From positions 1 to 38,125 of the forward strand of contig QPGO01000367.1 in NCBI GenBank assembly GCA_008632985.1: a stretch of 38,125 bases of DNA. Direction: 5' to 3'. The translations under genes were made by a program, and so were the position numbers. This DNA comes from Psammoneis japonica (Eukaryota). The notes under the pieces were generated by a model that had not been told where the DNA came from, did no database searches, and saw only the letters and a list, made by a program, of their open reading frames with translations. How positions within the stretch are numbered: position 1 is the stretch's first letter; each line of letters begins with the position of its first letter. Of this stretch, positions 5,553 through 37,468 are shown one piece after another.

Positions 5553-8285
5553 CTAAGATAAAATGTAGTCACTCCAGTCCAACCCACTAAAAAAGCTCAC
5601 CATCAAATCACCGATACGAGGAGCATTGACAAGCTTTGATTCTGGGCAGAAATCAATTTCACCAAGTACTTCCTCAATGCAATCCCATTCATAGTCCCAA
5701 TCAAAGGCCTTTTTGACTAGTTCAGCAAAGTCTCTGAGTTGACAAGCAACTGCAATGAAATCAATCCGAATCTCACCAAATCGGTCAACATCATGTCGAA
5801 CCGCTTCGCATGCTTTCTTGATGAAGACTTCGCACTCTGTCACATCATCCCACTCTGAGTAGTCCTTGTGTAAAACTACTCTGCAGAACTGACTTAAGTC
5901 ACTTGCACGAAGCATGCACGCCATGGATCGTCTGAAAGCGGTTTGCTGGTTACGATCATTGGTGTATCGATTTCGGGACGGCTGCATCCCGTTTTTCACT
6001 TTCATGTAGTCCAGTGCAACAGACACGTCGCGAATAGAGAGGCCAGTTCCTAGAAGAAAAGTCTTGGTAAAGTCCCCCTGGGATGAACTTTTGCCTGTCA
6101 TCCAAATCCCTGGAACCTTGGAGAAGATGCGATCGAGCTTCTCCAAGAATCCAAGTCTTTCCGCTACAATGTGCCTGCATCGCAGTGCGTTGTACAAATG
6201 CAGGACTTCACGTAAGCGTCTTCGAAGGTAATAAGTCGAAAAATGCGTACCAATAGAGACAAAGTACGCGGAATATGATCCTGCCATCAATGGATTCCAA
6301 TGCGAGACAGATACGGACGTGGCGGATACAGGCGGCCACTCTGGACGAGCTTCGTGAGCGTGCATCGCAAAAAAGTTTTTCAAAAGGCTTTTGGAATATG
6401 TTTGCGACGAAAGCTGGAGTTTGTGCATGTAGGAGACAGAAGCGGATTCTGCCTTTTCTCCGAGTCTTCTAACATGACTGTTTCCTTGCAGAGCCATGAT
6501 CGAAGTGAGTAGCGCGTGAAAACCAAAAGTGATAACCATGGGAACAGGGCCACCACGGTCATTCTGAAGGTATTCAACCAAAGAATACACTAGTGGAACA
6601 ACCTGAGGTATGCATGGGTTGTCAAGAACAGGAGGCTTAACTTCATTGCTACAAGCAGCAATGAGTTCTGGTAGCACCTCTGAGACTAGGAGATGGTCAA
6701 GGTCACCACGAATCTGTCTTGCAAAGTGCGTGTCTTCGTGCCATTTAAACTCAAACGTGTTGTCGCCAGCCAAAGCAACGCTCTTACATGCCTTTGCAGT
6801 AATATTTCTCGTTGGGTGCATGTACGAGAACACCGACTGAAGAAGCTTTTGAGTGTTAAGGATACACCGTCGATTTCCAATATATTTGTAATGGTACAGA
6901 AATTCCTCCCGAATCTTGTTGGAATCTTCTTCCAGAACAACATGGCAAACATCCGTTGCAAGCTTCTCAGCCTCTTCCAGCATAGTTTCCTTTTCCCAGT
7001 TCCCGTTCGGTAGGCCAAGTTTGGAGCCAAAGGCTTTGATAGCCTTGCTAGTATCAAGGCCCTCTATGGCAAAACAAGACTCCGCCACGTCTCCAATAAG
7101 ATGGGTGAGTAAGTGTGGATGCGACTGATTTGAATAGGAAGCGACTTCAGCGTATGCCTTGGACGCAGAAAGAGCAGGAGAGACAAAGACAACCGCCACC
7201 AAGTCGTAGAAGGACCGAATGTGCGGATGCTCCAGCGTCAGTTCCGCCCAAGTCGACTTGACGCAGTCCATGCAGATGTTAGTTGTGATAGCACCCTCCA
7301 TCAAGTAGACCATTAGTTGGTCATTGTCAAAGTCTTCAATACAAACGTGTTTGATAGTATCAAATCGCTCCCGGATCACGCCCATAAGACTGTCCATTGT
7401 CTCCAAGAACGCAATGCACTGGAACCGATCGTCCGCTCGGATCAAGTCTTCTTGTTGGGACATTGACAATGGCAGAGAAGTGCTTGGTGATGCTTGAGGT
7501 GGTGATGGTGGCCTAGTCGGTGCTTCTACTGCTTCAGAATCCAGCAAGTCTTCTTGTTGGGACGTTGACAATGGCAGAGAAGTGCTTGGTGATGCTTGAG
7601 GTGGTGATGGTGGCCTAGTCGGTGCTTCTACTGCTTCAGAATCCAGCTCGCTGTAGTCGAGATTCCATACATCGTGGTGGACGTCCTTGAGAGCATCAAA
7701 ACGCCCCCCTTGTACAGCAGCATTCCTTGTCTCTGACGCTTTCCCACACCCTCGACTGTTCAAACATTGCAGCTTTTTGGCAACAGCATTGGAAATCTTG
7801 AGAACATCGCGGCAATACTCGAGCACGGATATGATGTATTGGTGCCCCTTGCAGTGGTCCCCGTGCTTGCGGGCCTGTTCTTGGCGATGACGAATACTCG
7901 TATGGAGACAATCAAAGACGGATTGGTCCACGACAATGAGTTTTGTGCGTTTGTCGCGTCGTGCTTTGCTGCTTTTCTTCGTCTCGACACGTTCGGCAAT
8001 CCTCATACTCTGTTGCAGGATCGTTTCTGCGCCACGCTTGTAATCGTCAACAGACATTAGGCGATAACCTCGAGGGAGTAATTTGGCAAGTCCATCTCGA
8101 AAGGCCTCTGTAGCCTTCTTATAGCTAGCATAGACCCCCTTTGGCTGATGCTGCTGTTGATTGGACGACGACGACTCGTTCTCTCCAAAGCCAAAGTCGA
8201 AATCTGAAGGGGCTTTGTTGCTGTTATTTCGTTGGACGGGTCGTCCATCACTTTTGGATTTCTTTCTCCTCTTTGATGTTGACAT
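5553..8285 (-). CDS. DUF6604-like domain protein, 910 aa
   Basis: Intact long ORF. The N-terminal 'YASYKKATEAF...SIRHR...GHQYIISVLE', then 'GRFDAL', 'NPLMAG' and 'LHLYNAL', resemble the eukaryotic DUF6604 family. The family call is from motif recall, not a search. Confidence 0.7.
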   Translation of the reverse strand: MSTSKRRKKSKSDGRPVQRNNSNKAPSDFDFGFGENESSSSNQQQHQPKGVYASYKKATEAFRDGLAKLLPRGYRLMSVDDYKRGAETILQQSMRIAERVETKKSSKARRDKRTKLIVVDQSVFDCLHTSIRHRQEQARKHGDHCKGHQYIISVLEYCRDVLKISNAVAKKLQCLNSRGCGKASETRNAAVQGGRFDALKDVHHDVWNLDYSELDSEAVEAPTRPPSPPQASPSTSLPLSTSQQEDLLDSEAVEAPTRPPSPPQASPSTSLPLSMSQQEDLIRADDRFQCIAFLETMDSLMGVIRERFDTIKHVCIEDFDNDQLMVYLMEGAITTNICMDCVKSTWAELTLEHPHIRSFYDLVAVVFVSPALSASKAYAEVASYSNQSHPHLLTHLIGDVAESCFAIEGLDTSKAIKAFGSKLGLPNGNWEKETMLEEAEKLATDVCHVVLEEDSNKIREEFLYHYKYIGNRRCILNTQKLLQSVFSYMHPTRNITAKACKSVALAGDNTFEFKWHEDTHFARQIRGDLDHLLVSEVLPELIAACSNEVKPPVLDNPCIPQVVPLVYSLVEYLQNDRGGPVPMVITFGFHALLTSIMALQGNSHVRRLGEKAESASVSYMHKLQLSSQTYSKSLLKNFFAMHAHEARPEWPPVSATSVSVSHWNPLMAGSYSAYFVSIGTHFSTYYLRRRLREVLHLYNALRCRHIVAERLGFLEKLDRIFSKVPGIWMTGKSSSQGDFTKTFLLGTGLSIRDVSVALDYMKVKNGMQPSRNRYTNDRNQQTAFRRSMACMLRASDLSQFCRVVLHKDYSEWDDVTECEVFIKKACEAVRHDVDRFGEIRIDFIAVACQLRDFAELVKKAFDWDYEWDCIEEVLGEIDFCPESKLVNAPRIGDLMVSFFSGLDWSDYILS
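7443..7646. repeat. In-frame 102-bp tandem duplication (34 aa) within the DUF6604-like CDS
   Basis: 7443-7544 and 7545-7646 are identical apart from one substitution (cattg/cgttg). They encode LDSEAVEAPTRPPSPPQASPSTSLPLS(T/M)SQQEDL twice. Confidence 0.97.
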
Positions 8286-8476
8286 TGAAATTGTTTGGTT
8301 CTCGTCGGCTGATCTTTAGCGGCTCGTGGCGTGCTGCATTTATCGCAACATACAGTATGATGTTGTCGATTGTGTTGAGAAAGTTGATCGTTTTCATCGC
8401 TTCATGCTTCATCGCGGTTTTGGCGCCGCATGATCTATGTAATGTCGGTGTCCATGCTGTACATGATTTCTGCACA

Positions 8477-8627
8477 GAGGCAGGGGGGNNNNNNNNNNNN
8501 NGGGGGGGGGGCAGCAAAAAAGAAAAGAAAACAAGAAGGGGCACAAAACACTGAGGCAGGGGGGGGGGCAGCAAAAAGAAAACACAACAAGAAGGGGCAA
8601 AACACAAGAGCACCACTCTGCAGGTGA
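8477..8627 (+). repeat. Two ~75-bp purine-rich direct repeats with poly-G runs; assembly gap (13 N, 8489-8501) in the first
   Basis: gaggcag(G)n cagcaaaaa..gaaaa...caagaaggggca..aaacac occurs at 8477 and 8553. Confidence 0.8.
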
Positions 8628-10950
8628 AGCAAAAAAGGGCACTTGCCAAGGATGCCAACAAGCACATTGGCAATTTTTGCATGCTGTCCACACAAAATTT
8701 GTTTCATTTTTGCACTTCTTTTTGTGTGGGCAGCAGCCAGTGGTGACCACCACACCCTGCAGACAAAGCAGCTGTCGCCTGGTGTGATTTTTCATCAGCT
8801 TGCATTTTTGCTCCAAAGCAACTGAAACATGTGCATGCAAGCAAAGCCTCCCACTCATCACAATTTTTTCTTGAACATTGGTGTGCCCCCAATGGTGGCT
8901 GAGACTCGCACAATGCAAAATTGCACAGTCTCCAAATGTGAAATCTGTGTGAGTGCAGAGCTGGCAAATGCAAAGTCCATGCAAAGCTTGCATTGTTGAA
9001 ATCTGCAAACATTCTGCACATTTGACATTTTTGCAGCCTCTGCATTTGTGGACCCTGCAAAGATTCAGCAATGAGTGGAGAAATCTGGCTGACAAATGCC
9101 GCTGTGCATCACATTTGAAAGAACATTTCCACCAAACAATGTGTCTGTTTTTTCACATTCAATCCTGAAGATTTTGTGGACAGCACAGTGAGCAACAGCA
9201 AGCACAAAATGCCACGTCAATTTTCTCTGCTGTGAGTCAGCAAGGTGCAGAGGATGGTCACACAAATTGTGCAAAACTGTGTGGTTGCTGGTTGTTGAAT
9301 CACAATGAAAACAACCCACTCAAATTTTCCATTGTGCACCCACCAGGCAGTGCTGCACAAGTTTTTTCTTTCCAGGAGTGTTTGTGCAACTGTCTGTTCA
9401 TGTCAGTGCCCAGCACATTGGCTGGCAAAAGCCCAGCTGCATGAGACCCCATGATGCAAGCTGATGACAGGATCCAAGAGGTGTGTGTGGCAACAACACC
9501 AGTGTCAAAGCACATTGAACACATGCGATGCCTCGTTCACTTGCCCTCAATCCTCCGCTGTCAAAAAAAAGCAGGTGTCAATGTTTCAAAAGGGTTGGCA
9601 TGTGAGAGTGGCTCCATTGCTGCAACAAGGCACCATCGTTGTCATGGTTTTCAAGCTCCAATGCCCAAATGCTTGCACTCCTGTTTCTTTCATCTAATTT
9701 GGAACAAGCCACACTGCACAGCCAATTGACATGATGGATGATGGGCTCTCACACACACCAGAAGCAACATGCAATGCGTGCATTTGTGTGTGTCATCTCC
9801 ATCGTGCTTTGGCCACAAACTGCAGCCAACTCTAAAACAATGGCTGTTGTTTGTGAGCTGGCATGCCACAATTGTTCCAGCAGTGCAAGTGGCAAAACTG
9901 CAATCTCATCATTTCCCACACAACTGTTGACTCACACATCAACCAAGTTCTGCCATCAGCCACCTCACACACTCCTCCTCCTGTGTTTGAGTCTGCACGG
10001 CATTCTGAAAAATCAAAGAACACACCCACACAAGAGAGAGCAGTTATTCTGCAGACATTGGCACGTCAATGATGGTGTGCGTTCTCTCTTTGCACGCCAC
10101 ACGCAGCACCAGGGTTGTTTTTTTTTTCTGCAGAGGAGAAAACACGTGGTTTTTGCAGCTGCCTCTTTTGAGCCTGAGACTGGATGCTCATCTTGCTGGC
10201 ACTGTTGGGAAGGAAGTGATTCTCCACTCTGCCGCAACTCTTCTTCCCCAAATCACCATCTTGTGAATGCCATGCTGATGTTGTTCGAGATGAAGAAAGA
10301 CCGGTTCAATTTGAATTTTTTTGTGGTCTTTGTCTGAATGTAAAGGCTCTTCATTGTGGCGCATCAATTCGAGATGTGAAAGAGGAGATGAAGTGTCTGT
10401 GCAGAACAATTGTCAACCTTGTGTCCAGCAGAACTCCAAATTCCTTCGTAACGAGCTCCCGAAATTCGGAAAGGTTCAACGAGATTTAACACAACAGGTT
10501 CAACAAGATTCAACATGACAGGACAAGTGGAGAATCTCATCTGCAGTGCAGCGAAGATGGTGCAATGTTCACCCAGGCCTGGCACTCGCACTGCACCTGA
10601 CAAGATGACAGCAAAGGAAGTGGACAAATGCATGACACCCCAATCACTGCATTGCAAATCATCTCATCTGCAGTGCAGCGAAGATGGCACAATGGTTGCC
10701 CAGGCTCAGCACTCGCACCCACAACAACACGACAGCAGAGGAGGAATGACAATGACACCGGTCCAAGGAAAGAATTGTTGCCAACGATTTCGATTCTCCG
10801 CAAAAGAATTCTGGTGTCCACGGTCAATGGATGACCCGCAAATTATGTGCGCAAACCACACCCACTTTTTTGGTTGTTTGACAGAAATCACGACAGCCAG
10901 AGGGAGTGGTGTCTGGGTTGTTTGGCAACAAAAGAGACAACAAGGTGACA

Positions 10951-13654
10951 ATGAAGTTCTCCCCTCTCTTCTCATCTGCCGTTTCAGCTGTTTGGCTCTC
11001 TGCAACCGCGGCACAGCCATGCACCTGTGAGGTGCGGCGCAGTGGTCCCTGCACAAGCGGCTGCACTGGCCTTGTGAGGACCACGGGTTTCATCACGGTT
11101 GACAAGCTTGGAATGCTGAGCGAAGCTGACTTTGTTGACTGGAAACTCACTTTTGACAGCTCAAACACTGCAAACACCATGTTGGTTCCTTCCAACAGTG
11201 AGATCTTTTTAAATCTTGGAGGTGCTGGCTCCGCAGAGGCCAGTCTTTCCAAACTGACCATCACAATTCCGCCAGATGCAAGCACATTTTCGATCAGAGA
11301 CACTGTTGATGATCCATGCCACGTCTTTTGGTGACTTCAATTGACTGAACTTGAGGTCTTAACAGGGACAAGCGAGTTCTTGACCAATGCCCCCGACAGC
11401 TCCTCTTTTGCTGACCAAGCGTTCACACAGTTCCCAACTGGTGAGCTGTTGGTGGTTGCTCTTCCCAGCACAACAACGCCAAGGTGCACTTGTGAGGTGC
11501 AGCGCAGTGGTCCCTGCACAAGCGGCTGCACTGGCATTGTGACAACCACGGGTGCCATCACGGTCAACAAGCTTGGAATGCTGAGCGAAGCGGCTGGAAA
11601 CTCACTTTTGACAGCTCAAACGCTGCAAACACCATGTTGGTTCCTCCCAACAGTGAGATCTTCTTAAATCTTGGAAGTGGCTCCGCAGAGGCCAGTCCTT
11701 CCAAACCAACCATCACAATTCTGCCAGACACAAGCATGTTTTCGATCAGAGACACCGTTGATGATCCATGCCGCGTCTTTTGGCAACTTCAATCAACTGA
11801 ACTCTCCGTCTTAACAGGTGCAAGCAAGTTTTTGACCAATGCCCCTGACAGCTCCTCTTTTGCTGACCAAGCATTCACACAGTTCCCAACTGGTGAGACA
11901 TTGGTGGTTGTTCTTTCCAGCACAACGCCGTCACCTGCTCCAGTTCCGACACCTGCTCTGATGCCGTCGCCTGCACCAGCGCCCACCCCAAGACCTGTGC
12001 CTGCTCCGATGCCGTCGCCTGCACCAGCGCCTGCCCCGAGCTCTGCGCCTGCTCCAACAGCCATTGCCCACCCCTGCTCCAACACCGTCACCTGCACCAG
12101 CGCCTGCCCGAGCCCTGCACCTTCTCTGACCCCTGCACCCATGCCATCTCCTGCGCCGAGTCCTGCACCAAGTCCAACTCCAGCACCTGCACTGAGTCCA
12201 ACACCTGTGTCAATGCCTTCACTCACCCTTCGGAAAGGCGCTTGTTGCCCACCTGCAGATTCCAACAAGTGCTGCTTCAAGGGGATGTTAGAAGAGTGCA
12301 CTCTAAATGGCAGAACATTCCAAGGCAACGGCGTTCTCTGTAGAGACGCCGTGTGCCCTGCCTTGCCTCCTACGACGTCTCCTGCTCCGGCTCCTGCCTC
12401 AGCTCCCACTGCCCCGGGTCCTGCCATGGCACCGACCACACCGTCTCCTGCCAAGCTTCCTGCCCTCTGTCACCAACAAAGTTTGATCAAAGTCCTGGTG
12501 CATGTTGCACCTTGTTTGGGGGATGCCAGTTCCTTTCACAGGAATTGTGCAAGTTGGGTTGTGGCACTTTCACTGAGCCCGGAATCAACTGCTCTGACCC
12601 AGATGTCAATTGCCCGACCAAGGGAGCTTGCTGCACGGACGATGGATGCAAGGACAGTCACTTCAAGAAGAAGTGCACCAACAAAGGTGGCGAGTTCCAA
12701 GGATTTGGTAAAAAATGTGAGCTCGGTTTGTGCCCGACTGAACCGCCAACCCCGGCTCCATCCACCCTTCCACCTGCCTCAAAGCCCACCGTCACTCCTC
12801 CTCCGACTGGAGCATGCTGCGATGTGGAAGACGATAAATGTGAGCAAACAACTGAAGAAGATTGCAGCACGGGCGTCTTCCTTGGACTTGGTGTCAAGTG
12901 CAAGCCCGGCATTTGTCCCACTGGGACTTCTCCTGGAGCGTGTTGCCTCAAATCTGGAGAGTGCCGATTCTGGTCTCAACGCACGTGCGCTGCCAACGGA
13001 AACTTCTTCTTGGGCCCTGGCACTTCCTGCAGGAATGTGGTGTGCCCAATCAAGACTCCAAGCCCAACCCCCACTCCTGCCAAGAAAGCACTCAGAGCCT
13101 GCTGCTTAGAAAGTGGTCTTTGCCGCAACCTCATTCTGGCCAATTGCTGGAAGAAGCATGGCAAGTTCATCGGTGCAGGTGCCAAGTGCACTGAGGACAA
13201 CAAATGTCCCATTGGGCCATGCGGCAAACCCGGTGCTTGTTGTCTGGTTGAGAAAAGACAGTGCAGGACTCTCCCAGAGAAGAAGCGCAAAAAGAAGGGT
13301 GGACATTTTGGGGGTGAAGGTGTCAAGTGCAGCAAGAAAACATGCCCTGCTGCACATGGTGCCTGCTGCTTGCCAAATGCAAACTGTGCAGTGTTGAAGA
13401 AGACCACTTGTGTGAAAAAGCACGGAAAGTTTGTCGGATTCGGCACCAAGTGCAAGAAGAAGACATGCGCCTCCAAGCCAGGTGCCTGTTGCTGGAAGAA
13501 TGGCAAGTGCATGATGTTCGAACAGTCCAAGTGCTGCACGCGCAGAGGCAAATTCGTGGGAGCCAGTGTCAAGTGCCGCAAGAACACATGCCCCAAGAGC
13601 CCTCATTGCAAGCAGTCTGAGTCTGAGTTTGAGATGATGCACATCTTGGTTTGA
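10951..13654 (+). pseudogene. Disrupted gene for a secreted/surface protein: signal peptide, two tandem ~150-aa domains, Pro-rich (SPAP) linker, multiple 'GACC' Cys-rich repeats
   Basis: ATG at 10951 (MKFSPLFSSAVSAVWLSATAAQP). In-frame TGA at 11332, a frameshifting deletion near 11590, and a frame change near 12470-12510. About 9 repeats of 'GACC....C....C....G.f.G.g..C....C'. Stop at 13652-13654. Confidence 0.8.
11020..11925 (+). repeat. Tandem ~465-bp domain duplication inside the Cys-rich pseudogene
   Basis: tgcac.tgtgaggtgc.gcgcagtggtccctgcacaagcggctgcactggc at 11020 and 11485. The units stay alignable to ...cagttcccaactggtgag..ttggtggttg.tctt.ccagcacaac. Confidence 0.93.
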
Positions 13655-14283
13655 CAAAAAACATGTCGTTGTGGGAAGAGTTCCCAAGACTTGTAATTCT
13701 TAGTCATTTGTTGCAATGTGATGAGCAGTGCATTTCATCTCCTTTCCATTTGATCAATGGTGCCTTGTGCTTGCAGTGTAAAACATTCTGTTGCTCTGCA
13801 TCCTTGACATGAGACAGATGGGACTGAGGATGTGAAGGGAAAAACGCTGATGAAACTGAGCCCGGTTTGTACATTGGGTCTTAGAACGCAGCTTCATTTG
13901 CAGCCCTTGCGGTGTGAGTTGGCAAGTGACCCGAGTGGCATGAAAGTTTCACCCTTCGATAAAAGCGAGACTGTTGTCCTCTCCAGCTTGCACTGCACCA
14001 TAGACCGCTGCACTCATTTTCAGTCCTGCCGCATCCCGTGTGACAACACTGCAACAAAAGCCCCTGTTCCATGCACAGCGGCATTGTCCTTTGGCTTGCA
14101 CCATTGCATTGGACTGTCACACACAATCTCAATTCTAGTCTTTCCAGCTTAAATTGACAAACAATGGCTCTGAATGTTTTCCCTTGCAATGAAAGGAGGA
14201 TTGTGGTCCTCCAATTTGTGCGGTGGACCTCTTTGCATGCAATTTCAGGCCTGTCCATTTGGTTTGAATTAACAACAAAACTG

Positions 14284-15800
14284 GACCAGCAGATGGTCAA
14301 GGTCACCATGAATCTGTCATGCAAAGTGCATGTCTTTGTGTCATTTAAATTCAAAAGTGTTGTCACCAGCCGAAGCAACGCTTGCTTGCATGCCTGCGCA
14401 ACAACATTTCTTGTTGGGTGCATGCATGAGGACACCGGCTGAAAAAGCTTTTGAGTGTTGAGGATGCACTGTGGATTTCCAATGTGTTTGCAACAACACA
14501 CAAATTCCTCCAAAATCTTGTTGGAATCTTCTTCCAGAACAACATGACAAACATCCATTGCAAGCTTCTCAGCCTCTTCCAGCATGGATTCCTTTTTTCC
14601 CAGTTCCCCTTCTGTGGGCCAAGTTTGGAGCCAAAGGCTTTGACAGCCTTGCCAGTGTCAATGCCCTCTGTGGCAAAACAAGAGTCCACCACATCGCCAA
14701 TGAAATGGGCAAGCAAGCGTGGATGCAAATGATTTGAATGGGGGGTGTGACTTTTGAACATGCTTTGGATGCAGAAAGAGCTGGAGGGACAAAGACAACT
14801 GCCGCCAAGTCATGGAATGACCAGATGTGCAGATGCTCCAGCATCAGTTCCACCCAAGTTGACTTGACGCAATCCATGCAGATTGTGTCAGCTGTGATGG
14901 CACCCTCCATCAAGCAGAGCATCAGTTGGTCATTGTCCAAGTTTTCAACACAAACGCATTTGACAGAGTCAAACCACTCCTGGATCACGCCCACCCATGA
15001 GACAGCCCACAGTCTCCAAGAACATGATGCACTGGAGCCAATTGTCTGCATGAATCAAGTGTTCTTGTTGGGATTTTGACAATGACAAAGAAGTGCTTGG
15101 TGATGCTTAAGATGGCAACAGCTGCTCAGCTGGTGCTTCTGCTGCTTCAGAATCCAGCTTGCTGTGGTCAAAATTTCAGACATTGTGGCAGACAACATCC
15201 TTGAGAGCATCAAAACGCCCCCCTTGTGCAGCAGCATTCCCTGTCTCTGATGCTTTCCCACATCCTTGGTTGTTTAAACTTCAAACATTGCATCTTTCTG
15301 GCAACGGCATTGAAAATGTTGAGAATGTTGCAGCAATGCTTGAGGACAGATGTGATGTGTTGGTGCCCCTTGCTGTGCCCCCCCTGTGCTTGCGAGCCTG
15401 TTCTTGGTGATGATGAGCACTCATGCAAAGACAATCAAAGATGGGCTGGCCCGTGACAACAAGTTTTGTGCATTTGTCATGTCATGCTTTGCTGCTTTTT
15501 GTCTTGACACACTTGGCAATCCTCACACTCTGTTGCACGACTGTTTCTGTGCCACACTTGCAATCGTCAACAGACATCAGGCAACAACCTCAAGAGGGAG
15601 CATTTTGGCAAGTCCATCTCAAAAGGCATCCACAGCCCTCTTGCAGCTGGCATGGACCCCCTTTGGTTGATGCTGTTGTTGGTCAGATGATGGCTCCTTG
15701 TTCTTGCCAAAGCCAAAGTCAACATCTGGGGCTTTGTTGTTGTTGCATTGGATTGGTCATCCATCACTTTTGAACTTCTTTTTCCTCTTTGAAGTTGGCA
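14284..15800 (-). pseudogene. 3'-truncated, frameshifted, hypermutated copy of the DUF6604-like gene (equivalent to 6685-8285)
   Basis: Residual peptides MLEEAEKLAMDVCHVVLEEDSNKILEEF, DNDQLMLCLMEGAIT and KAFGSKLG match the 910-aa protein but are spread over several frames. Tyr codons have become Cys/His codons. Confidence 0.95.
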
Positions 15801-18080
15801 TCAGCTGGCTAATGTCAGAAGATCTTTGGCAGCTTGTGGCATGCTGCATTTGTTGCAACAAAGCAATGATGTTGTCCCCATTGTGTTGGGAGTCATTGGT
15901 CACAGTTTTTGTTTCACTTCCATGGTTTTGGCATGCATGAGAGGAGGTGGGTGCATTGGCTGTGTCACATGATGTTCACACTGTTTCTTTTTTCAGAGCA
16001 GCCAGGTGAGGCAGGTGTGTGGTTGATGCTCTGATCAATTCCATCCTGTTTTGACCACCACAGCCTTGTGGGAACATCTGGGCATTCTCCAGCTCATCAC
16101 ACTCCTCTTCACACATGATTCCTGTGTGCAGAGGCAGAAAGGAAAAAAACAGCCAAAAAGAAAAGAGGGCAAGGGGGGGCAAGGATGCTGCTGCCTTTCT
16201 GAGAAAGAAAAGCTCTCTTGCTCAGGGTGCTGGTCAGCATCCTGCCAATTCTGATGTGCTGTGTGCAAAACATTCATTTTCATTTTTTGCAGTGCATTTT
16301 GTGATGAACAGCAGTCTCCTGTGCCCCCCTGCAGAGAGAGCTCAGTGCCTTTTCTGTCTTGGACTTTTTATGAGCCCACACTTTGGGCTCAAAGCAAGAG
16401 CAGAGAAGCTTGTGCACACAAGCAAAAGTGTCCCAGCTGTTGTGGTGTTTTCTCATGCATGAGTTTGCCTTTGAAGATTGCCAGCTCACAGTTGGAAATT
16501 GCACAGAGTTTGCACTTTCAAAATCTGTGCACACACTTTGTGCATTTGACAAGCTGAAATTTGAGTCTTTGCAGACTTTGCGTTTGTGATTCCACATTTT
16601 TTGCAGGCTCCACACACTCACAATTCTGTGCTTCCTGTGAGCTCTGCATTTGCAAGCTCAGTGCCAAAAATTGAGTTTTGAGCATGGAGAAACCCAGAAG
16701 ATGACAATCGCGTTGGCTTGTGCATCATTTGAAAGAACATTTCCATTGAAAAATCCATTTTTGATGCAAGCACCCAACCCTGAAAATTTTTGAATGTTGT
16801 GGTGCAAGGCTTTCCCAAGCAACACAAGCTGCCGTATGTGCCACATAAAATTTCTGCTGTGTGTTTGCATGGTGCCTGTCACAAAAATCTTTGGCTACAA
16901 AAGGATGCTCCTGGTTGGTTGAGCTGTGATGAAAACAGCGGCACACTCTTTTTTTCATTGCATTGCTTCACAAATCCTTTCATTGACAACTGCATGAACA
17001 GCCACCAGACAATGCAGTCAAAAGTTCTCAGCTTTCACTGCTGAAAATGTCTGGGATGAAAAACCTGACTGGGTGCTGGCCTCTGTGCTCTGGGGCATGA
17101 CTGAAGTTTTCTTGGCAAGCAACAGTCCTCAACAAAGAGAGCAGCAGTCAACTCTCCATCAGCCGCTGGTGACAGATGGCACATGTGCGGCTTTACAACG
17201 AGAGCTCATGGGGCCTTCAGGCTGTTCAATCTCTTGATGTCAATTGCTTCTTTGAGCTGCAAACAGTGTGCACATGCCACCCTTGTGCCATCAAATTATG
17301 GTGACATGATGAAAGTGACCACCAGCAGGGCTTTGGCAGCAACAGCTGCTGAGCACCACAAGCAGCAATGGTGGGAGATGGTTTCTTTTGGTGTGGTGCA
17401 TGGCAACAAACATCCAAAGTGGTTGGTTGCACACATGCACATGAATCTGTCAGAGCACACTGAACATGTGCATTCATTCATTAGCTCTCAATCCTCCACT
17501 GTTGAAAAAGCCATGCTCCAACATTTCAAATGGACTTTCCCGATGCAAACAAGTGAGAGTGGCTCCATTTTGCTGTGGCAAGGCACCATTGTTGCCACAG
17601 CTGTCAAGTTCTAATCTTCACTGCTTGCACTCCTGTTTCTTTCGTCAAATTTGGAACAAACCACGCAGCACCGCTAATTGACATTACAAGCTCACACAAA
17701 TTGGAAGCAACAAGAAGCAATGCATTCGCACATGTCATCTCGATCGCACTGTAGCCACAAAACTGCAATTAAAACTCTAAAACGTTGACTATTATGTATA
17801 AATTAGTATGCAGTTGTTCCGGTAATGTACATGGTGAGACTTTTAACATCACTTCCCACGCAACACTATTGACTCACGCATCAAAAAGTCCTACTGTCAC
17901 CTTGCTCTGCGTTTTCAGTCCGTATGGCATTCTAAAGAATCAAAGAACACACACAAGAGAGTAGCACCGACATATTGACACGTCAATAAGAACATGTGTT
18001 CTCTCCTTTACGTACCACACACACACACATCACAAGAGTTGTTTCCTTTTTCTTTCTAAGGAAACACTTGGTCCGCAGCC
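14284..18080 (+). repeat. Segmental duplication, copy B
   Basis: Same anchors as copy A. It has extra segments near 15976-16110 and ~17050-17500, and only one unit of the 102-bp repeat. Confidence 0.88.
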
Positions 18081-18906
18081 AAGTCGGTCAAAAACATGTG
18101 ACCCGGGCTGTGCGTAATGCAAAAGGGGATTTTGGATTCCAAAATAACATTTTGAGGCGTCACTCCACACGCATGAAAGACGGGAACCACGTCGGGTGCC
18201 ATCAAGGTTGGTGGTGGCACGCCCCAATCCGGCTTGTGTAGATCCAAAATTCCAATCGATGCGGGACATCCAATGCAAACGGGTGCGCCGTGCGCATGGG
18301 GATAGTTGGATGTGATTTCAACCTCTTTGGAAATCCATGATGCGGGAATCAATCGCATGCTCACGACAAGATTGCCCTTGAATGTTCCGGCGGGGCGACA
18401 CGCAATGTTTGTCTTGTACATGGGAACATTCGAAGAGAGCAGTGTCCTGGGTAAAACTCCGGCTTGCTGAAGAGCATAGTCAAAGGAAAAGGAACAACCC
18501 AACAAAAAGGCAACCCCGTCTTTTGGCCAGTAGTCCTTGACATTGTAAACTTCTTTTTCTAGCGCTCCATTCTTATAAATTGCGTATCTTTTTGCAAAGA
18601 AAGTATTACAGTTCGCAACTTAGCAAAACATACGGCGGTAAAGAACAATTACAAGCATCTCCTTTTTCTTGCAATAACTACTCACTTTGGAATATCCGTC
18701 TTTAGGTCAGCATTCTTGGCAACTCTGGAATCGGGAATGCTTGTGTCGGTACAAACTTCAATCAGAGGACACGATTTTGGATTTCGTTGACAAAAGAGCA
18801 AAAAATCAAAGGCATATTCCTTGGGCAGGACCACCAAGTTGCATTGTAATTTCCCCGGACAAATCCCATTCGTCGAGCTCGTGTATTCTTCTTTTCGAAC
18901 AGACAT
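18056..18906 (-). CDS. DUF1445 family putative hydro-lyase / D-glutamate cyclase-like protein; exons 18906-18686 and 18587-18056; true start uncertain (may lie up to ~19142)
   Basis: Motifs G..Q.NLVVLP..AFDFLLFCQRNPKSCPL, DLKTDIPK|Y, FLLGCSFSFD.AL, NVPMYKTNI.CRPAG.F.G.LVVSMR, HGAPV.IG.P, PVFHACGVTPQ and ITHSPGHMFLTD. A 98-bp GT..AG intron (18685-18588) joins the two ORFs in frame. Confidence 0.9.
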
Positions 18907-19379
18907 GCGAAAGTCATGTGTATTCTTCGTAAAGTCTTCTTTTTGCTCTTGTTTATTATTATTGGTTTCTCCGTCATCATCACTCCGGTTTTCTCGATAC
19001 AGTTGTTTTGTTCTGTTTCGAACGATGCTTCTTGTTTCGTTAGCGTTAATTTCTGAATATCATAGGAACGAGTATGGGTGTTGGTTGTGACAACCTCTAC
19101 GGGAGCGTTCTCGTTCATGATATCAATCATGGGAGGCGTCATGGTATGGCAATTCTGCTTTCTAGTTGGCGTTGATTGCCAACATTGTGACAGCGAGGGA
19201 GAGAGCGTCACGGAATTCTTTCTCGCTTCTCGTCGCCACGCACTCGCCAACATTGAAATGTATACAGACATTAAAATGAAAAATGAAACATCAGCTAACG
19301 TCACAGGAAACTTAAGATTTTCGGCGGATGTGCTGTTCTGCTGTCTGTCGCATCTTTGAATGAATGATTAAATGACAGA

Positions 19380-22300
19380 TGATGTGATGTGATGGATGGT
19401 TGGGCAGGGCAATGGTTGGTGTGGTTGGTGTGGATGGATGGATGGATGGATGGATGGATGGATGGATGGATGGATGGATGGATGGATGGATGGATGGATG
19501 GATGGATGGATGGACAGATGGATGCGGAATGTGGAACATCGCTGCATGAAACAGGGGACACTCTCTGTCATGTGTTGACACATTGTGCACATGAGTGGCA
19601 GAGACAGAAAGGGAGAGGAGCTGAGCAAGAAGACAAGAAGCTCTCTCTTGTTTGACAAGACCCACCACAGCTCCTCAACAAAACAATGTCTTCAAAGAGG
19701 CTCTTCTTTTGCAGGAGCACCCAGTGCTCTCACAGCACTCAGCCCTTCTGGTGTCATGTTGATGATTGCAAGAACCTGTGCAAAGAGTTTGAGAGCACAT
19801 TCTGTGTGTTGAAGAAAAAAGCAGAGCTCTCTCGGCATCACTGACTCCAAGAACTCTGGGTTTTGTTTGGTCACAGACCATCTTCAACCAATGACGCTGT
19901 GCACTGTGCATGAAGGGCAGAGGGTTCTGCACCCCAGACCCACATTGTCTCTGCAAAAGTGCAGAGAGCTCCATGCCTGTCTGGTGTGGAAAAGCTGCAA
20001 ATGTGAAGCACCCTTTCAGAACAACTGCTTCTGCTGTTTCTGGAGATCTCTGTCAAAATTGCCCATCCATGGCATGGACAGATCATTGAATTTCACATGC
20101 CTGGCACAGTCATGGAACATCCACTCATGGATCAGCCCAGAGAAAAGCAAGAGAGAAAGAAGTCACATTTTGTGAACAAGAGGGGCTGGCTCCAGCTCAA
20201 AACATCCACCTCACAACCCAAGTCACAACATCTGGCCTCAGCAAGACAGATTCAAACAAAGCTTGAAATTGCCCTTGTCAGTGTGCAAGGAAGGTCTAAC
20301 ACTTGGTGCCAGGTTTCCTTCCTCAAGCAGTGAGAAAAAACAACAGCAAAAATGGGGTCAAACGAAAGTGCCCCCCAGCAGCTTGTGAGATTGTTGCAAT
20401 CCTCATGGGCCCAACTGGGGGCTTGATGCTCTGTCCAATCAAGGAAATTACAGGTGGTGTTTCTTTGACAGTCTCTTTGATCCCAACCTGTCTCATCATG
20501 ATGTTTGCATTTCCAAAGCTCCACACCCATGTTGGGTCTGAGGCAAAAGCTCCCTCTCACTTGTTGCTGCTGGGCCTCAGAAAAGCAACAGCTCAACATG
20601 TGACCAGCCTCTGGAGAAGAAAGCCAGTCATGCCCAAGTGAAACAAGATCTTTTGTCCCACCATCACAGCTTCAACAGACCTCAGACAAGTTGAAGATGA
20701 CTGAGTGTGCACAGCATGATGAAAAGATTGTTGTTGTCCAGTGCACCTGTTGGGTTCTGTCTGTTCTTTTGGCTCTTCTCCCAGAAATTGGATTTGTCAG
20801 CACGTGACACTTGCCTGTCAACTTGCAACTGTGGAGGCTGCTCCTCCCAACCACCCATCATGTGGGACAAAGAGAGACATCTTCCAGGTTCTTGGGAGCC
20901 TCCCATCCAAGAATCTTCCCTTCAGCTGCTCTTCAAAGATGTGAATCCCTCAATGACCCCTGTTTCTAAGAGCATGGGCAATGAGCTGGAGTCATCCAAT
21001 GCTTGATGGTGCTTTTTTTGCTGTTTCTCTAGCTGCAAAGGCACCAACAATTTGTGGCATGGATTTCTTGATGTCATGTTCTCTTCTTGACCCTGAAGCA
21101 TGAAGCTGGCACGGGCAAGTTCTTTGAAATCTTTGTGGGTGGGCACCAGGAGCACCTCTTGCTGCAGGGCAATGCAGCTCTGGTTGTTCTGCAACCATGT
21201 GGTGACAACACAGCATTTGCAGTGCCAGCACTTTGGACACCCCAAGCTGCTTCTTTCAGATTGTCAATCAATTGTGCCCATTGCCAGGGCACCTCCTGTG
21301 TGATTTTCAGTTTGTGGCAGCTTGATCTGCATGATTCAGAGCATGAGTTGCACCAAGTGCCCAGCAAGGCTGAACTTTGCTTGAGAATGAGCTGTTGTCA
21401 ATGACCAGCATTGTCATTGCTGGCTCCCCAAAGGAACACTTTGCAATGTCTTAAAAAAATTCTGCACCACCACTTGCTGCAAAATGCTCTGTCAACATCC
21501 ACAAAGACACAAAATGCTGCAGCTTTGCAGTGTCTTGAGAGTTGCTCTCAAGGAAATGAGCTTCTTCTGCCAAGACAATCACAACAGCAATGCTCTCTCC
21601 TGCCAAAACCCTTGTCAACCCTTGTCAGCTCTCAAGCATGGATTCCTGAGCACTGTCAAAATGATGATGATCACTGCCACCTGAACAAGTCTTGAGCCAC
21701 TTGTGGAGCAGCAGCACATGGGGTTTGACTGTCAAATTTCCATTTGCAGCACCCAATTTCCAGCAACCTTCTTTTTCAACAACACATGCTGTCCAGCATG
21801 CCTGTGTTTCACAAGCCTCACAAACCTGGCAGGTCTGACAAAATGCCACTTGGTCAACTCTCAAGAGCTGGGGGTCCACAAACTTGAGCAAGATGATGTT
21901 GAGGGGCTGCAGCGAATGTTGTGTCACCCTTGTCAGCATTGTTCTACATTTGCACTGTTGTCTTGCCAGCAGTTGAAGTCAGCAGTCTGCTTGGAACAAA
22001 AAAAGGTTGCACTCTGCAATGAGCTGGAGAAAGCAAGAATTAAAGAGTGGCCAGCTTTTAGAAGACCAGCTGTTGCCTGTTTTCAAAACCCAGGTTTGCA
22101 GCCAGTGGGCACACAATGGATTCTCCAGTTGGTGCCATTGATTGAGCATCGTTTTGAGAGACAGCACTTGCACTGGTTTGCTTTTGCTGGCTCCAACTCT
22201 GACATCCAGATTCACAAGCTGCTGCAATGAAGCCAGATGGTCATGAGTGCTGGGAAGTGCATTTGGACTGTGCTGATGACACTCTGATTGTGCCACACCA

Positions 22301-22960
22301 AGGCAAGTGGCTGTTGGGAAACAAGCCAGCACAAGCAAGAAGATCAAGCCTGTCACAGTGAGGGTGAGCACTAAAATGGCATTTGGGTGCAAGAAGATCC
22401 AGTTGAAAGATGGGCACATTGTCTGGGACAGTTCTTCAACACATTGTGTGTGAAGAGTGCATCAAGAGATGGTCAAAGAGATGCTGGTGGAGAACAAAAA
22501 AGACCAAGTGCTCACATCTGAGCCAGGGTCTGGTGTGGGCAGGTGTGTTGGCTCTGGTGGTCACTCCCCAGTTGTTTGTCACTGGGCAGCTGTGTGCTTC
22601 TTGGCTGCATTGGTGGAATTTTTGACAAAATGTTGAGTTTGTCTTGGCATCAGGCATGTAAAAGGTGAGACCTTTTGGATGCACAGCATCATGTGATTGT
22701 GAGCTTGAAATGACATCCTGTCCCAGGAAGGAAGGGTTTGATCTTTTACAGAGCTCCAAAAGCAGATGACTCAGTGTCCAATGATGGCACACAGATTGGG
22801 CGGAGCTTGTCTGGTCAACATGTGTGCCACCATCAGTTAAACCACAAGAACCGCTGGTGGTGGTGGCATGCTTTCTTCAATGGTGCTTCTTGTGGAGTGT
22901 GCTTCTTTCTCTTTAGCTGCTGGTTCCTCATGATGGATCTGCACTTGGAGGAACTCTTGT
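19380..22960. other. TpA- and CpG-depleted domain 3 (probable decayed transposon or gene, unidentified)
   Basis: Almost no TA or CG over ~3.6 kb, and no recognisable protein motif. Confidence 0.8.
19431..19514 (+). repeat. (TGGA)21 microsatellite
   Basis: Perfect tetranucleotide run followed by cagatggatg. Confidence 0.97.
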
Positions 22961-28218: not shown

Positions 28219-28479
28219 AACTGTAGTGTCTTGTCGAAAAGGAAAGAGGCGACCTCTACAGCATGCGGTGTTTACAGATAAGATGCCGTACTGTGCATTG
28301 GATCAGGTATTCAATACAATAGAACAAACGTAGAGCAATTCAAATTAAAAGTTTACATCATGGTTCGGAAAAAGTGCGTTGCTTGCTAAGATTTGTCCTG
28401 TGTTATCGGACGACTCCATTCTAACGATTCGGTGGCAGATGAACTGGAAATTATTGGGAGCTCTGGGCTGCTGTCAAAC

Positions 28480-30260
28480 TCTGGATGTTGGTGTGTTGTC
28501 ACGTGTTTTTGTTTTTTGCAGTGATCTGTTCAGTCGTTTCAAGGATGAGTTGAAGATTTGCTCAAGTGGGTTCAAGTGTTTCTTGGGATTTGTCTTGCAA
28601 AAGGAGCAAGCAGTGTTGCCAAGAAGAAGGACTCTGATCTGTGATCATTTGTGTTTGCATGTTTTTGTGGTGCAACAAGGGGGCGCCGTTCATTCTTGGT
28701 GTTGGCAAAGAAGACAAAGGAGTGGAGTTTGACATGGAAAAGAGAATGCATGACATGTGGTTGTTGATCCATGCACATGTGAAAGTGCTGCAGAATGAAA
28801 AATGCAATGGGCCAGAGGCACTGGTCATGTGTTCTTGCCAGCAGCACCACAAAACACAGCCTGCTTTGCACACATGATTGTGAGATTGTGTCAGCAAGCA
28901 CATGGCAATGTGGACATTTTGGCTTTGAGCTGCAAGGTGTCATGGGCTGCAACATTTTTTTGCACAGATGACAAACATTGAGGGAAAGGAAAGCTCTGCA
29001 AGCTTCAGTTTGGCACCTCCTCTTGTGCCTTTGAAAATTTGCTGAGTGGCCAGCTGTGAATGACAAGCTCACTTGCCACTTGGAAAATGACAACATTTCA
29101 GTCCTTTCTTTCCACTCTGGCTTTCAATGTTGAAGATCTGTGACACATTGCTGACACCTTGATTTGCACTGTTCTTGCAGCTGGTGCCAACCCAGGGCTG
29201 TGGACAAAGCTTGCCTTGCACATTGTGCTCACACAGTTTGACCTCAAATCAATGTGCAATGCAAGAGAGCTGTGACAATGAGTGCTGGCACCTGCTTGAG
29301 ATTGTGGCACCAAACTCAACGCCCCAAAACAGTTGCCGTGCCAAACTTTTTGCCAAAGTCTCTTGTGAGGACAATCTTTTTCTGCCAGGGCTGTGGAAGG
29401 TGTCAAAGTTGTTTTGCCATTGAAGTTTTTGGAGCCCCACAAGTGCTGTTTTTCTCCTTTCCTCTTTCTTGTCATTTGTGTGGAAGACATGATGATGCAC
29501 ATTTTGCCCTCTTGCTGGCTCAAAGAAATGACATGACATTGCACACACTGTGCCATTTTCTGCTGGTGGTTTTGCAGCACACACAATGGGCTGTGGCAAC
29601 AGCAACATGGTCAGTGACACTGTGCTCTTTTTCAATCACAAATGCTTGTGTGTGTGTGGACAAAAATCCCAGTGTGTTTTTCTCCTTGTCTCAAGAAGTG
29701 CCCAGCCCCTTTTTTCTTTGAGGGAGTGAGTGGGGCAAACTGCGCCAGATGCTGCAGTGGACATCCATGGGAGGGACACAGTCTTGTGACTGTCCCAACA
29801 TGCAGCAGGGTAGAAATTGGCCAATGGAGGAGTGGAGGTGTGGGCAAAGATGTCGACAACATTTTGCTGTGCACGCAGGAGGGGGGGGGACGACCAGCAA
29901 AACACAACAACAACCACAAACCTCCAATCTCAAGCAAATTTTGGAGTGATTGCACCCAAATGAAAGTGAAGTGGATCCAATGGACATGAGGTGCTTGAAG
30001 GCACATGTGCAGGCAATGCTGTGCCAGGAGCTGGAAGGCCGCCCAGCGCATCAGCGCCCTGAGGTGACTGAGTTGTGTGTGTGAGGCAAGAGGTCACAGC
30101 ATCAAAAGCCGCCACCACATGCACAGCTTGGCAAAAATGTCATCCAAACCCTGTCCCCCACAAGAATGCAATGGCAGAAAAGGCTTGGACCAGGCTGATG
30201 GCACAGCAGTGGCTGCGCAATTCAAAAACACAGGGTTTTGTGGTTGGCTGACAAAAAAGC
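28480..30260. other. TpA- and CpG-depleted domain 4, between the sulfotransferase-like and LicD genes
   Basis: Loss of TA/CG after ~28480, with an abrupt return at ~30270 (taataatgat). Confidence 0.8.
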
Positions 30261-37447: not shown

Positions 37448-37468
37448 TCTCTCTCTCTCTCTCTCTCT
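37448..37468 (+). repeat. (TC)n microsatellite
   Basis: tctctctctctctctctctct. Confidence 0.9.

Follow-up and report, generated by a model that had tools for sequence, protein, structure and literature searches.

Rewriting of TpA and CpG to TpG and CpA in the non-genic DNA of a genomic window of the diatom Psammoneis japonica

In the window analyzed here (the whole stretch of 38,125 nucleotides of contig QPGO01000367.1 of Psammoneis japonica), all long non-genic DNA has its TA and CG dinucleotides nearly fully rewritten to TG or CA; CA/TG is the sole common pyrimidine-purine step left in it, and the GC content, near 48%, is unchanged. We propose, with a probability of roughly 80%, that two context-specific transition processes act on non-transcribed, probably silenced and CpG-methylated, DNA of this diatom. 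The first would be the ordinary decay of 5-methylcytosine (CpG to TpG or CpA), and the second a faster, TpA-specific process (TpA to TpG or CpA) with a signature as measured de novo in Bigelowiella natans; both would go near to saturation in blocks, the extent of which is known from this one 38-kb window.

Mutation spectrum of a decayed gene copy

The window contains a gene and a decayed copy of its first part:
5553..8285, minus strand: intact DUF6604 gene, 910 aa (open reading frame; Pfam PF20253, E 9e-9), the unconverted reference copy
14284..15891, minus strand: decayed copy of the first ~534 codons of the DUF6604 gene (blastn and alignment), with 7 in-frame stops

The intact gene has normal TpA and CpG content, its homologues in diatoms are at 42-45% identity, and contigs of the sequencing run X2 are placed on it (5516-8173). 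The alignment of the gene (6684-8345) with the copy provided 1517 sites with ungapped neighbours, including 264 mismatches. Among the 54 TpA of the gene, 27 have become TG and 24 CA in the copy, one is kept and two are changed otherwise; the respective figures for the 85 CpG are 36, 32, 8, and 9. As for the 106 CpA, 95 are kept in the copy, and TA is among none of the listed fates. Near-complete TpA conversion, claimed by an earlier sequence-only reading of this DNA, thus holds along the copy (51 of 54 TpA, and 68 of 85 CpG, to TG or CA), and the short stretch on which this claim was based (8041-8140 against 15561-15662) was re-read with the same result (9 of 9 TpA and 3 of 4 CpG changed to CA or TG); the other sequence strings that it quoted are present as well. 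TpA is lost faster than CpG (1/54 against 8/85 kept).

Calculated per base, transitions affect 52/108 (0.48) of TpA and 72/168 (0.43) of CpG positions, against 49/669 (0.073) of other A/T and 43/572 (0.075) of other C/G. The excess is significant for both TpA (Fisher p ~2e-23) and CpG (~2e-24), and, when estimated from survival, which gives a lower bound, amounts to at least ~26-fold and ~15-fold, respectively. The predicted second, TpA-specific A:T>G:C process, acting besides CpG decay on non-expressed DNA, is supported by these rates. Selection purging TpA and CpG from non-genic DNA (as cryptic TATA-like promoters or nuclease/sensor motifs) would agree with a depletion that is restricted to such DNA and has sharp edges, and survivors of the TTAA type could be functional; however, it would accept transversions too, whereas transitions make up 52 of the 54 changes seen at TpA bases and 92/129 (71%) of those in the background (binomial p 3e-6), a difference that points to mutation and away from selection against TA. 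Since the pattern also hits a dead gene copy with seven stops and the copy of a 3' UTR, and the B. natans signature arises de novo without selection, we regard the selective explanation as very improbable.

The outcomes of neither dinucleotide are clustered (runs test: 24 runs against 26.4 ± 3.5 expected for TpA, 37 against 34.8 ± 4.0 for CpG), and the absence of strand-coordinated runs indicates that the hits are independent and fall on either strand. With respect to the 5' base, A>G changes were counted in 52/108 cases after T, 12/220 after A, 20/230 after C, and 17/219 after G. Error-prone repair of the Pol-eta type (WA>WG) triggered by T:G mismatches, which would stem from 5mC deamination, was among the candidates of the sequence-only reading, and the common domains occupied by the TpA and CpG losses speak for such repair, or for GC-biased gene conversion. 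The context spectrum largely refutes both: the rate after A is not above that after C or G, so that the WA motif is not seen, and A:T>G:C outside TpA, for which a check was run, is not elevated in comparison with C:G>T:A outside CpG (0.073 against 0.075), leaving no general GC bias. A further argument against them is the region 10.2-13.0 kb of the window, which has lost TpA but kept much CpG. We find this whole group of explanations hardly tenable.

The direction of change was determined with four outgroup homologues (proteins), the agreement of at least two of the four being taken as decisive. Among 149 non-synonymous differences between the gene and the copy, the outgroups carry the gene state in 58 cases and the copy state in four, and 87 are uninformative; at all informative Tyr sites (TAY>CAY/TGY) they carry Tyr. 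This shows the gene (TA) state to be ancestral and the copy state to be derived, in line with the direction from intact gene to broken copy assumed by the sequence-only reading, which had pointed out that TG/CA might instead turn out ancestral in an outgroup.

Converted blocks between the genes

HMM segmentation of the window delimited five blocks depleted in TpA and CpG:
1731..2624, no strand: block 1 (TA o/e 0.04, CG o/e 0.28)
8461..17611, no strand: block 2 (TA o/e 0.07, CG o/e 0.31), contains the decayed gene copy
19370..22913, no strand: block 3 (TA o/e 0.05, CG o/e 0.05)
28453..30270, no strand: block 4 (TA o/e 0.01, CG o/e 0.17)
33234..38125, no strand: block 5 (TA o/e 0.03, CG o/e 0.07), continues past the window end

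These sharply bounded blocks comprise 20,299 of the 38,125 bp (53% of the window), with TpA o/e 0.01-0.07, CpG o/e 0.05-0.31, CA/TG o/e 1.7-2.0, and GC 0.48-0.51; TA o/e in the normal segments is 0.51-0.66. The 64 TpA that the blocks retain in total compare with 748 in the 17,826 bp assigned to normal segments. Every block sits between open reading frames (ORFs), its edges being 100-500 bp away from them, and within the window the intergenic spaces are filled by blocks. One block edge bears a 13-N gap (8489-8501). In a part of block 2 (~10.2-13.0 kb) TpA is gone and about half of CpG is retained, the 250-bp bins between 10251 and 13000 having 0-4 TpA but 5-14 CpG each; since these bins are nearly TpA-free and still CpG-bearing, the TpA loss is able to outrun the CpG loss. 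From CpG decay and position we infer that the blocks may be heterochromatin or 5mC domains.

Block 2 is bounded by an expressed gene of normal composition:
18056..19059, minus strand: spliced gene of the D-glutamate cyclase family (PF07286, E 1.6e-56)

An X2 contig skips 18588-18685 of this gene, a segment with the ends CT..AC, that is, GT..AG on the minus strand. Over 8657-17676 X2 contigs gave only a trace, at 13167-13617, which is not evidence of silence. For the ABC1 kinase the closest relatives are at 70-73% identity.

Of 166 block ORFs of at least 70 aa, 67 (essentially those of at least 99 aa, with the decayed copy left out) were searched against Pfam, and none matched a family at E<=0.001, the one sub-threshold match being SIP1 (E 0.008). 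The Pfam search of these 67 ORFs thus gave no domain of a virus or transposon, although decayed foreign DNA could escape it. Three long block ORFs look like chance reading frames. A further ORF lies inside block 2:
12344..13651, plus strand: open Cys-rich-repeat reading frame of 436 codons (translation)

This ORF has 2057 relatives at E<=1e-3 and is nearly Tyr-free, multi-copy in the genome, and host-type: Tyr makes up 0.2% of it, against a median of 2.3% and a minimum of 0.37% among the 150 matches listed, and the depth of the sequencing run X1 over it is 120-340, against about 60 elsewhere.

Segmental duplication with a mosaic of converted parts

The decayed copy is a part of a collinear segmental duplication of 3.4-3.8 kb:
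6684..10129, no strand: segment A, the 5' half of the DUF6604 gene and the DNA upstream of it (blastn pairs)
15892..17611, no strand: segment B, upstream part, converted; its partner (8548-9472) is likewise converted
17751..18053, no strand: segment B, distal part, unconverted; 3' UTR of the expressed D-glutamate-cyclase gene

Blastn detected the pairs 6684-7545/14284-15158, 7545-8380/15056-15891, and 9503-10129/17448-18053. In the middle part, 8548-9472 aligns to 16126-17105, with a transition-tolerant alignment score of 511 against 130 ± 13 for shuffles. Therefore, the extent proposed in the sequence-only reading (14284..15960) needs revision in both directions: blastn homology of the copy stops at 15891, and collinear homology runs on to 18053.

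The gene half of the duplication is converted in B only, the middle in both segments, and the distal 300 bp in A only. In the latter, the segment A counterpart (about 9800-10129) of 17751..18053 is converted, the spliced X2 contig starts within the B side (at 17817), and of the 25 TpA on the B side of the 9450-10180/17400-18110 alignment 11 are TG, 7 are CA, and one is kept in A. Where both copies are converted, they differ in part in the outcome: TG<->CA steps are discordant at 37 and concordant at 92 positions of the middle part, and at 7 and 77 positions, respectively, of a 452-bp tandem repeat. This discordance indicates that each copy was converted independently, in place, and after the duplication.

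RIP of ascomycete fungi, which is homology-triggered and hits both copies, replaces C by T mainly at CpA, creates TpA, and turns DNA AT-rich. Like RIP, the present process wrecks non-genic or duplicated DNA by dinucleotide-specific transitions and leaves long compositionally aberrant blocks. A RIP-like homology-triggered defence, in which duplication marks DNA for TpA and CpG mutation, might also be suggested by the decayed sequence being a copy within a duplicated segment, by the partly tandem or multi-copy nature of block 2, and by DNMT4 enzymes related to fungal RID, which some diatoms possess according to the accessible part of a published account (PMC9998398). The polarity, however, is the opposite one, since TpA is destroyed here (24 TpA gave CpA) and GC stays near 0.48. 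Moreover, the intact gene is untouched next to its saturated duplicate, the situation is reversed in the distal 300 bp, where A is converted and B intact, and blocks 1, 3, and 4 are without other duplicates in the window. The mosaic, in which not all copies are mutated across the duplicated length, shows that local chromatin state, not homology, would decide conversion. A RIP-like mechanism is hence quite improbable, and the 'reverse-RIP' and duplication framing under which the conversion had been presented is to be abandoned: most of the converted DNA of the window has no second copy within it. A seed search of the window in RY space revealed no duplicates beyond those listed, save a weak pair near 33000/34400, which aligns poorly (295/660 identical).

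As explanations, an artefact of assembly or sequencing and a foreign origin of the DNA, with a native composition of this kind, are next to negligible. The N gap at the edge of block 2 might be held in favour of an artefact, but a 4263-nt X1 contig crosses the block edge at 17611/17612 and X1 depth is uniform (about 58-65) in blocks and genes; as for foreign DNA, outgroup polarity and the mosaic speak for in-place conversion after a duplication of host DNA. The altered sequence itself, for which support by reads was desirable, is carried by X1 contigs at a depth of about 60, equal to that of the gene, with 0-1 differing letters, X1 being probably the source sample of the assembly and not independent support. 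In single-copy block DNA the window differs from X1 at six positions (12214, 15305, 16127, 16897, 16917, and 16940), and all six are exchanges between CpG or TpA and TpG/CpA. Conversion is possibly still active.

Influence of flanking bases

The flanking bases were shown to affect strongly which TpA survive, TTAA being refractory. TTAA occurs 16 times in blocks and 30 times in normal regions, CTAA/TTAG 19 and 63 times, ATAC/GTAT once and 125 times, and ATAT 0 and 46 times. A model with unequal flank rates is better than one with equal rates (LRT 84.8, p 3e-18), and an additive flank model fits (deviance 3.2, 6 df), genic DNA being taken in this rule as a proxy for ancestral composition and fresh TpA creation being a possible contributor.

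The idea that the outer neighbour picks the mutated base pair of a TpA found no support in the direct outcomes: the preferred pair was hit 24 times and the less preferred one 15 times (p 0.20), and a model in which the neighbour decides the strand (51 outcomes) had a likelihood no better than a coin flip.

Comparison with known systems

CpG decay by deamination of 5-methylcytosine is characteristic of methylated domains of vertebrates, plants, and diatom transposons (DNMT5). The CpG outcomes reported above resemble it, being equal by strand (36 TG and 32 CA of 85) and confined to non-genic DNA. The TpA loss, in contrast, is not explained by such decay and is present where CpG is half retained.

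For the TpA-specific component, the sequence-only reading knew of no description as a germline genome-defence process. In fact, TpA>TpG/CpA hypermutation has already been measured in B. natans (Mettrop et al., bioRxiv 10.64898/2026.01.13.699255). In its mutation-accumulation lines, two viral inserts took up 231 mutations, of which 230 were A>G or T>C changes confined to TpA, the rate of ~6e-7 per site per generation being about 1000-fold elevated. The same preprint describes 124 TpA-poor, CA+TG-rich clusters in the B. natans genome (callable 85 Mb, given as 90% of the genome size), gives Rho 0.45 for an NCLDV insert, and interprets the process as an antiviral defence. The likeness concerns the TpA target with both outcomes (27 TG and 24 CA here), the concentration of A>G/T>C substitutions at TpA (here 0.48 against 0.073 at other A/T), the regional confinement beside normal DNA with TpA-poor, CA+TG-rich clusters as the long-term footprint, and the resistance of most affected ORFs to annotation.

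The differences are as follows. B. natans is a chlorarachniophyte (rhizarian), whereas the present host is a diatom (stramenopile). Instead of Rho 0.45, we observe saturation (TpA o/e 0.01-0.07 over 53% of the window), and instead of viral targets, the duplicate of a host gene, the copy of a host 3' UTR, and the host-type Cys-rich repeat ORF. CpG decay is co-located here, and the hypermutated DNA of B. natans is, as far as reported, not depleted in CpG, the text of the preprint being without the word 'CpG' (bioRxiv 10.64898/2026.01.13.699255). The terms 'TTAA', 'context', and 'flanking' do not occur in this text either, although its supplements, which list mutated sites, could contain a flank rule. 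Finally, the B. natans rate was measured de novo, and our ~26-fold excess is a lower bound derived from survival. Thus, the kind of process is already known, and what is new is the diatom host, the saturation, the host-gene targets, the co-located CpG decay, and the flank rule. Full-text searches of literature other than subscription journals did not bring up any account of TpA-specific conversion in a diatom; the accessible part of the Phaeodactylum tricornutum mutation-accumulation paper makes no mention of TpA. A gene-dense 9.4-kb diatom contig (L001), the single one yielded by a metagenome scan, contains no block, which says little about diatoms in general.

Possible chemistry

TadA and ADAT2-3 act after U33 in tRNA and ADAR has a preference for 5' U, all of them being RNA enzymes. 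The changes described here resemble the action of these A-to-I deaminases in being A>G substitutions preceded by T/U; unlike it, they occur in genomic DNA and are strand-symmetric and unclustered. DNA editing by ADAT2-type enzymes was, as far as its citation in the B. natans preprint goes, reported for amphioxus and trypanosomes (bioRxiv 10.64898/2026.01.13.699255), and ADARs are metazoan-specific according to the accessible part of another paper (PMC3239186). Our leading guess, still a tentative one, is that an enzyme deaminates the adenine of 5'-TA-3' in DNA, turning it into inosine, which is also the proposal made for B. natans (bioRxiv 10.64898/2026.01.13.699255); the mechanism may be the same in both organisms. 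Candidate genes would be those of ADAT2/3-like deaminases and of the deaminases restricted to stramenopiles that were noted by Iyer et al. 2011 (deaminase-SAM-Tudor and Rossmann-deaminase). Alternatively, thymine at TpA in silent chromatin could be oxidised or modified (5hmU/5fU type), pair with G, and turn into C. By symmetry, the footprint would be the same, TpA>CpA being TpA>TpG on the opposite strand. 5-Formyluracil mispairs with G, and the 5hmU of dinoflagellates favours TpA. We consider thymine modification conceivable, if rather unlikely, and no sequence feature tells it apart from adenine deamination.

Significance

A TpA-specific A:T>G:C mutator has so far been measured in one unrelated alga, and its saturated footprint in a diatom would mean that it is no curiosity of a single species. 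Its target would be silent chromatin generally, not viral sequence, as conversion has reached a dead host gene and the copy of a 3' UTR and spared their expressed twins, and the process would be able to dominate genome composition outside genes. The flank preference, strand symmetry, lack of processivity, and speed above that of CpG decay are testable properties that narrow the search for the enzyme, and diatoms, being genetically tractable, would allow the mechanism to be dissected. Base-editing research would also take an interest in a natural A>G editor of DNA with a defined context. As to annotation, repeats and genes in such blocks of diatom genomes will escape homology-based detection, and comparison in purine/pyrimidine space recovers homology across converted DNA.

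It may be, though we would not wager on it, that diatoms and chlorarachniophytes share an old chromatin-guided 5'-TA-3' editor (an adenine deaminase or a thymine modifier), which would hit any DNA unprotected by transcription, viral or not, act faster than 5mC decay, and, in the present diatom, have brought about half of the local sequence to a TA- and CG-free state. If so, silent DNA would be permanently and irreversibly inactivated, losing its TAA/TAG stops, TATA boxes, and Tyr codons at a constant GC content.

The duplicated segment and its genes

The intact DUF6604 gene and its decayed copy (14284-15891) are parts of a longer repeat. When the window was compared with itself by blastn, 6684-7545 matched 14284-15158 at 83%, 7545-8380 matched 15056-15891 at 79%, and a third pair, 9503-10129 and 17448-18053, matched at 68%, the three pairs being collinear with offsets of 7.6-7.95 kb. 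The gap between the pairs was bridged by transition-tolerant local alignment (8548-9472 with 16126-17105, score 511 vs 130 +/- 13 in 30 shuffles). Since the pairs are collinear and the intervening DNA aligns in this way, we conclude from the sequence that segment A (6684-10129) was duplicated as segment B (14284-18053). The genes concerned are:

5553-8285, minus strand: intact 910-codon ORF, carrying DUF6604 and containing the partner of 14284-15158
Stop codon at 18056, minus strand: D-glutamate-cyclase-family gene (PF07286, E 1.6e-56)

The distal part of segment B is the 3' end of the latter gene. Its spliced form is seen in the sequencing run X2, where a contig on 17817-18587 and 18686-19000 leaves out 98 nt whose minus-strand ends are GT..AG, and is missing from the DNA-like run X1. 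The best named relative of the DUF6604 gene is a Seminavis robusta protein (42% identity), and the named relatives of an ABC1 kinase gene in the window are diatoms only (best unnamed hits 70-73%), which by homology marks the window as diatom nuclear DNA.

Inside the intact DUF6604 gene, 7443-7647 is a 102-bp (34-codon) tandem duplication with 99% identity; the decayed copy has one unit only, and the repeat therefore postdates the segmental duplication. Three long ORFs of normal composition, 27145-28218(+), 30414-31874(+) and 31742-32752(+), matched no Pfam family; the last two share part of their length in different frames, perhaps as pieces of a single gene interrupted by an intron or a frameshift.

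Conversion of TpA and CpG in the copy

Gene and copy were compared in a MAFFT alignment (1517 sites with ungapped neighbours, 264 mismatches). The sequence-only reading had described the turnover of TpA and CpG into TG or CA, and both the stretch it quoted and its examples agree with the sequence, 51/54 TpA and 68/85 CpG being converted.

Fate in the copy of TpA and CpG present in the gene
Dinucleotide, n: TG, CA, kept, other
TpA, 54: 27, 24, 1, 2
CpG, 85: 36, 32, 8, 9

Transitions per base amount to 52/108 at TpA and 72/168 at CpG (Fisher p for the excess ~2e-23 and ~2e-24, respectively), against 49/669 for the remaining A/T and 43/572 for the remaining C/G. Judged from survival, the loss per base is at least ~26 times background for TpA and ~15 times for CpG. 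General GC-biased change, a refuting condition named in the sequence-only reading, does not overturn the claim: A:T>G:C outside TpA is not above C:G>T:A outside CpG. Nor is selection alone a favoured cause: at TpA bases transitions account for 52/54 changes, where the background share is 92/129 (p 3e-6), which argues against pure selection against TA. The TG and CA outcomes are strand-symmetric and without clustering (runs test: 24 runs vs 26.4 +/- 3.5 for TpA, 37 vs 34.8 +/- 4.0 for CpG). The WA motif of Pol-eta, proposed as a candidate agent, is not seen, A>G after a 5' A occurring at 12/220.

As to the direction of change, the gene product was aligned with four homologues as outgroups, and codons were mapped via the DNA alignment. 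Among 488 codons compared there are 149 non-synonymous differences; the outgroups (at least 2/4 agreeing) share the gene residue at 58 sites and the copy residue at 4, and 87 are uninformative. TAY Tyr codons became CAY or TGY in the copy where outgroups carry Tyr, CGN Arg codons became TGN or CAN, and the copy has 7 in-frame stops. On these grounds TA and CG are read as the ancestral state and the copy as the changed side, in agreement with the direction first proposed. Between 6684-8345 and 14284-15891, asymmetric double changes occur (gene TG/copy CA at 11 positions, the reverse at 2); one possibility is that an ancestral CpG or TpA changed in the gene lineage too.

The altered sequence is present in the raw data. 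Contigs of X1, probably the source sample of the assembly, differ from the copy by 0-1 letters; over 5500-19000 their depth is ~58-65, alike in blocks and genes. Where X1 departs from the window within single-copy block DNA, it does so by CpG or TpA <-> TpG/CpA every time (6/6, a small number), a hint of recent or continuing conversion.

Depleted blocks between genes

The observation extends beyond the copy. Segmentation of the window by dinucleotide tracks and a two-state TpA model gave five depleted blocks (20,299 bp in sum), set apart by normal segments. In the blocks CA and TG o/e are 1.7-2.0 and GC is 0.48-0.51; in the normal segments TA o/e is 0.51-0.66 and CG o/e 0.91-1.01.

TpA/CpG-depleted blocks
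1731-2624: TA o/e 0.04, CG o/e 0.28
8461-17611: TA o/e 0.07, CG o/e 0.31
19370-22913: TA o/e 0.05, CG o/e 0.05
28453-30270: TA o/e 0.01, CG o/e 0.17
33234-38125: TA o/e 0.03, CG o/e 0.07

All five sit between ORFs, their edges ~100-500 bp off ORF ends; the edge 17611/17612 is spanned by one X1 contig. A scaffold gap of 13 N (8489-8501) lies exactly where the upstream region of the DUF6604 gene meets the block 8461-17611, and none of the X1 contigs listed bridges 8488-8559. At 10251-13000, 250-bp bins hold 0-4 TpA and 5-14 CpG; TpA loss is thus able to precede CpG loss. The same block holds a 452-bp tandem repeat (11020-11926, 2 copies, 87% matches) with 7 TG<->CA discordances between copies, so conversion went on after the tandem duplication. 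A (TGGA)n microsatellite (23.5 copies, 19431-19524) stands at the start of the block 19370-22913, next to the D-glutamate-cyclase gene on its 5' side.

No Pfam family was matched at E<=0.001 in 67 block ORFs scanned (from 166 of at least 70 aa); one had a SIP1 match below threshold (E 0.008). One translated frame has many relatives:

12344-13651, plus strand: open 436-codon frame with ~10 Cys-rich repeats (GACC...C...G.F.G.G..C...CP)

It has 2057 relatives at E<=1e-3 and no Pfam family. Tyr makes up 0.2% of its residues; the 150 of these relatives that were listed have a median of 2.3%, and none falls below 0.37%. Lys is 11.7% vs 0.7% in relatives, and X1 depth over the frame is 2-5 times the single-copy level. 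The frame looks like a member of a host-type gene family from which TA was removed.

Survival of TpA depends strongly on the neighbouring bases, as shown by counts from 20,075 bp of block DNA (five blocks drawn by hand) and 18,037 bp of normal DNA.

TpA by flanking bases (blocks; normal DNA)
TTAA: 16; 30
CTAA/TTAG: 19; 63
GTAA/TTAC: 11; 89
ATAC/GTAT: 1; 125
ATAT: 0; 46

Equal rates are rejected (LRT 84.8, p 3e-18), and the data agree with an additive model (deviance 3.2, 6 df) in which the 3' neighbours rank T > C > G >> A. In the 51 direct outcomes, mutation did not fall significantly more often on the base pair next to the favoured neighbour (24 vs 15, p 0.20), and for this reason we claim the flank effect on survival and no strand model. 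Compared with genes, blocks have raised GpC o/e (1.2-1.5) and lowered ApT o/e (0.6-0.9), and A>G outside TpA is commonest with C following (CAC 8/43, GAC 8/63); these features may reflect a weaker second context effect or be a by-product of TATA>TGCA-type changes.

Local state rather than homology

The duplication is a mosaic. In the gene body segment A is normal and segment B converted; in the upstream DNA both are converted; in the distal 300 bp only A is converted while B is normal, A having 11 TG, 7 CA and 1 unchanged TpA opposite the 25 TpA of B (alignment 9450-10180/17400-18110). The upstream TG<->CA steps (37 discordant vs 92 concordant) show the pattern expected if the same ancestral TA or CG was converted independently in the two copies. 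This mosaic means that conversion tracks local state, leaving gene bodies and ends untouched, and not homology. The "reverse RIP" triggered by duplication is thereby abandoned, and the process is set apart from the homology-driven, fungal-type RIP; what stands of that interpretation is a separate, TpA-specific process acting on probably silent DNA.

Mechanism and relation to known systems

In the mechanism that fits best, domain-targeted mutagenesis would turn TpA into TpG/CpA, with 5mC decay acting alongside. Adenine deamination is the chemistry we favour, with a probability of about 40%; thymine modification appears rather unlikely. In diatoms, DNMT5a CG-methylates transposons and the RID-related DNMT4 is present in some species (PMC9998398); deaminase architectures specific to stramenopiles exist (PMC3239186). 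The accessible part of the P. tricornutum mutation-accumulation paper (PMC6604790) makes no mention of TpA.

Full-text searches turned up a single work that bears directly on the matter, by Mettrop et al. (bioRxiv 10.64898/2026.01.13.699255), by which the process, thought undescribed in the sequence-only reading, is of a kind already known. In B. natans mutation-accumulation lines, 231/302 nuclear mutations fell in an integrated NCLDV and a virophage, where A>G or T>C accounted for 230/231, every one of them within a TpA, and the rate was ~6e-7 per site per generation; the genome has 124 TpA-poor, CA+TG-rich clusters, and an ADAT2-like DNA adenine deaminase was proposed. The words "CpG", "TTAA", "context", "flanking" and "diatom" do not occur in the preprint text, supplements apart. 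The case of P. japonica differs from that of B. natans in lineage, saturation and extent, in the targeting of host sequences, and in the co-located CpG decay and the flank rule.
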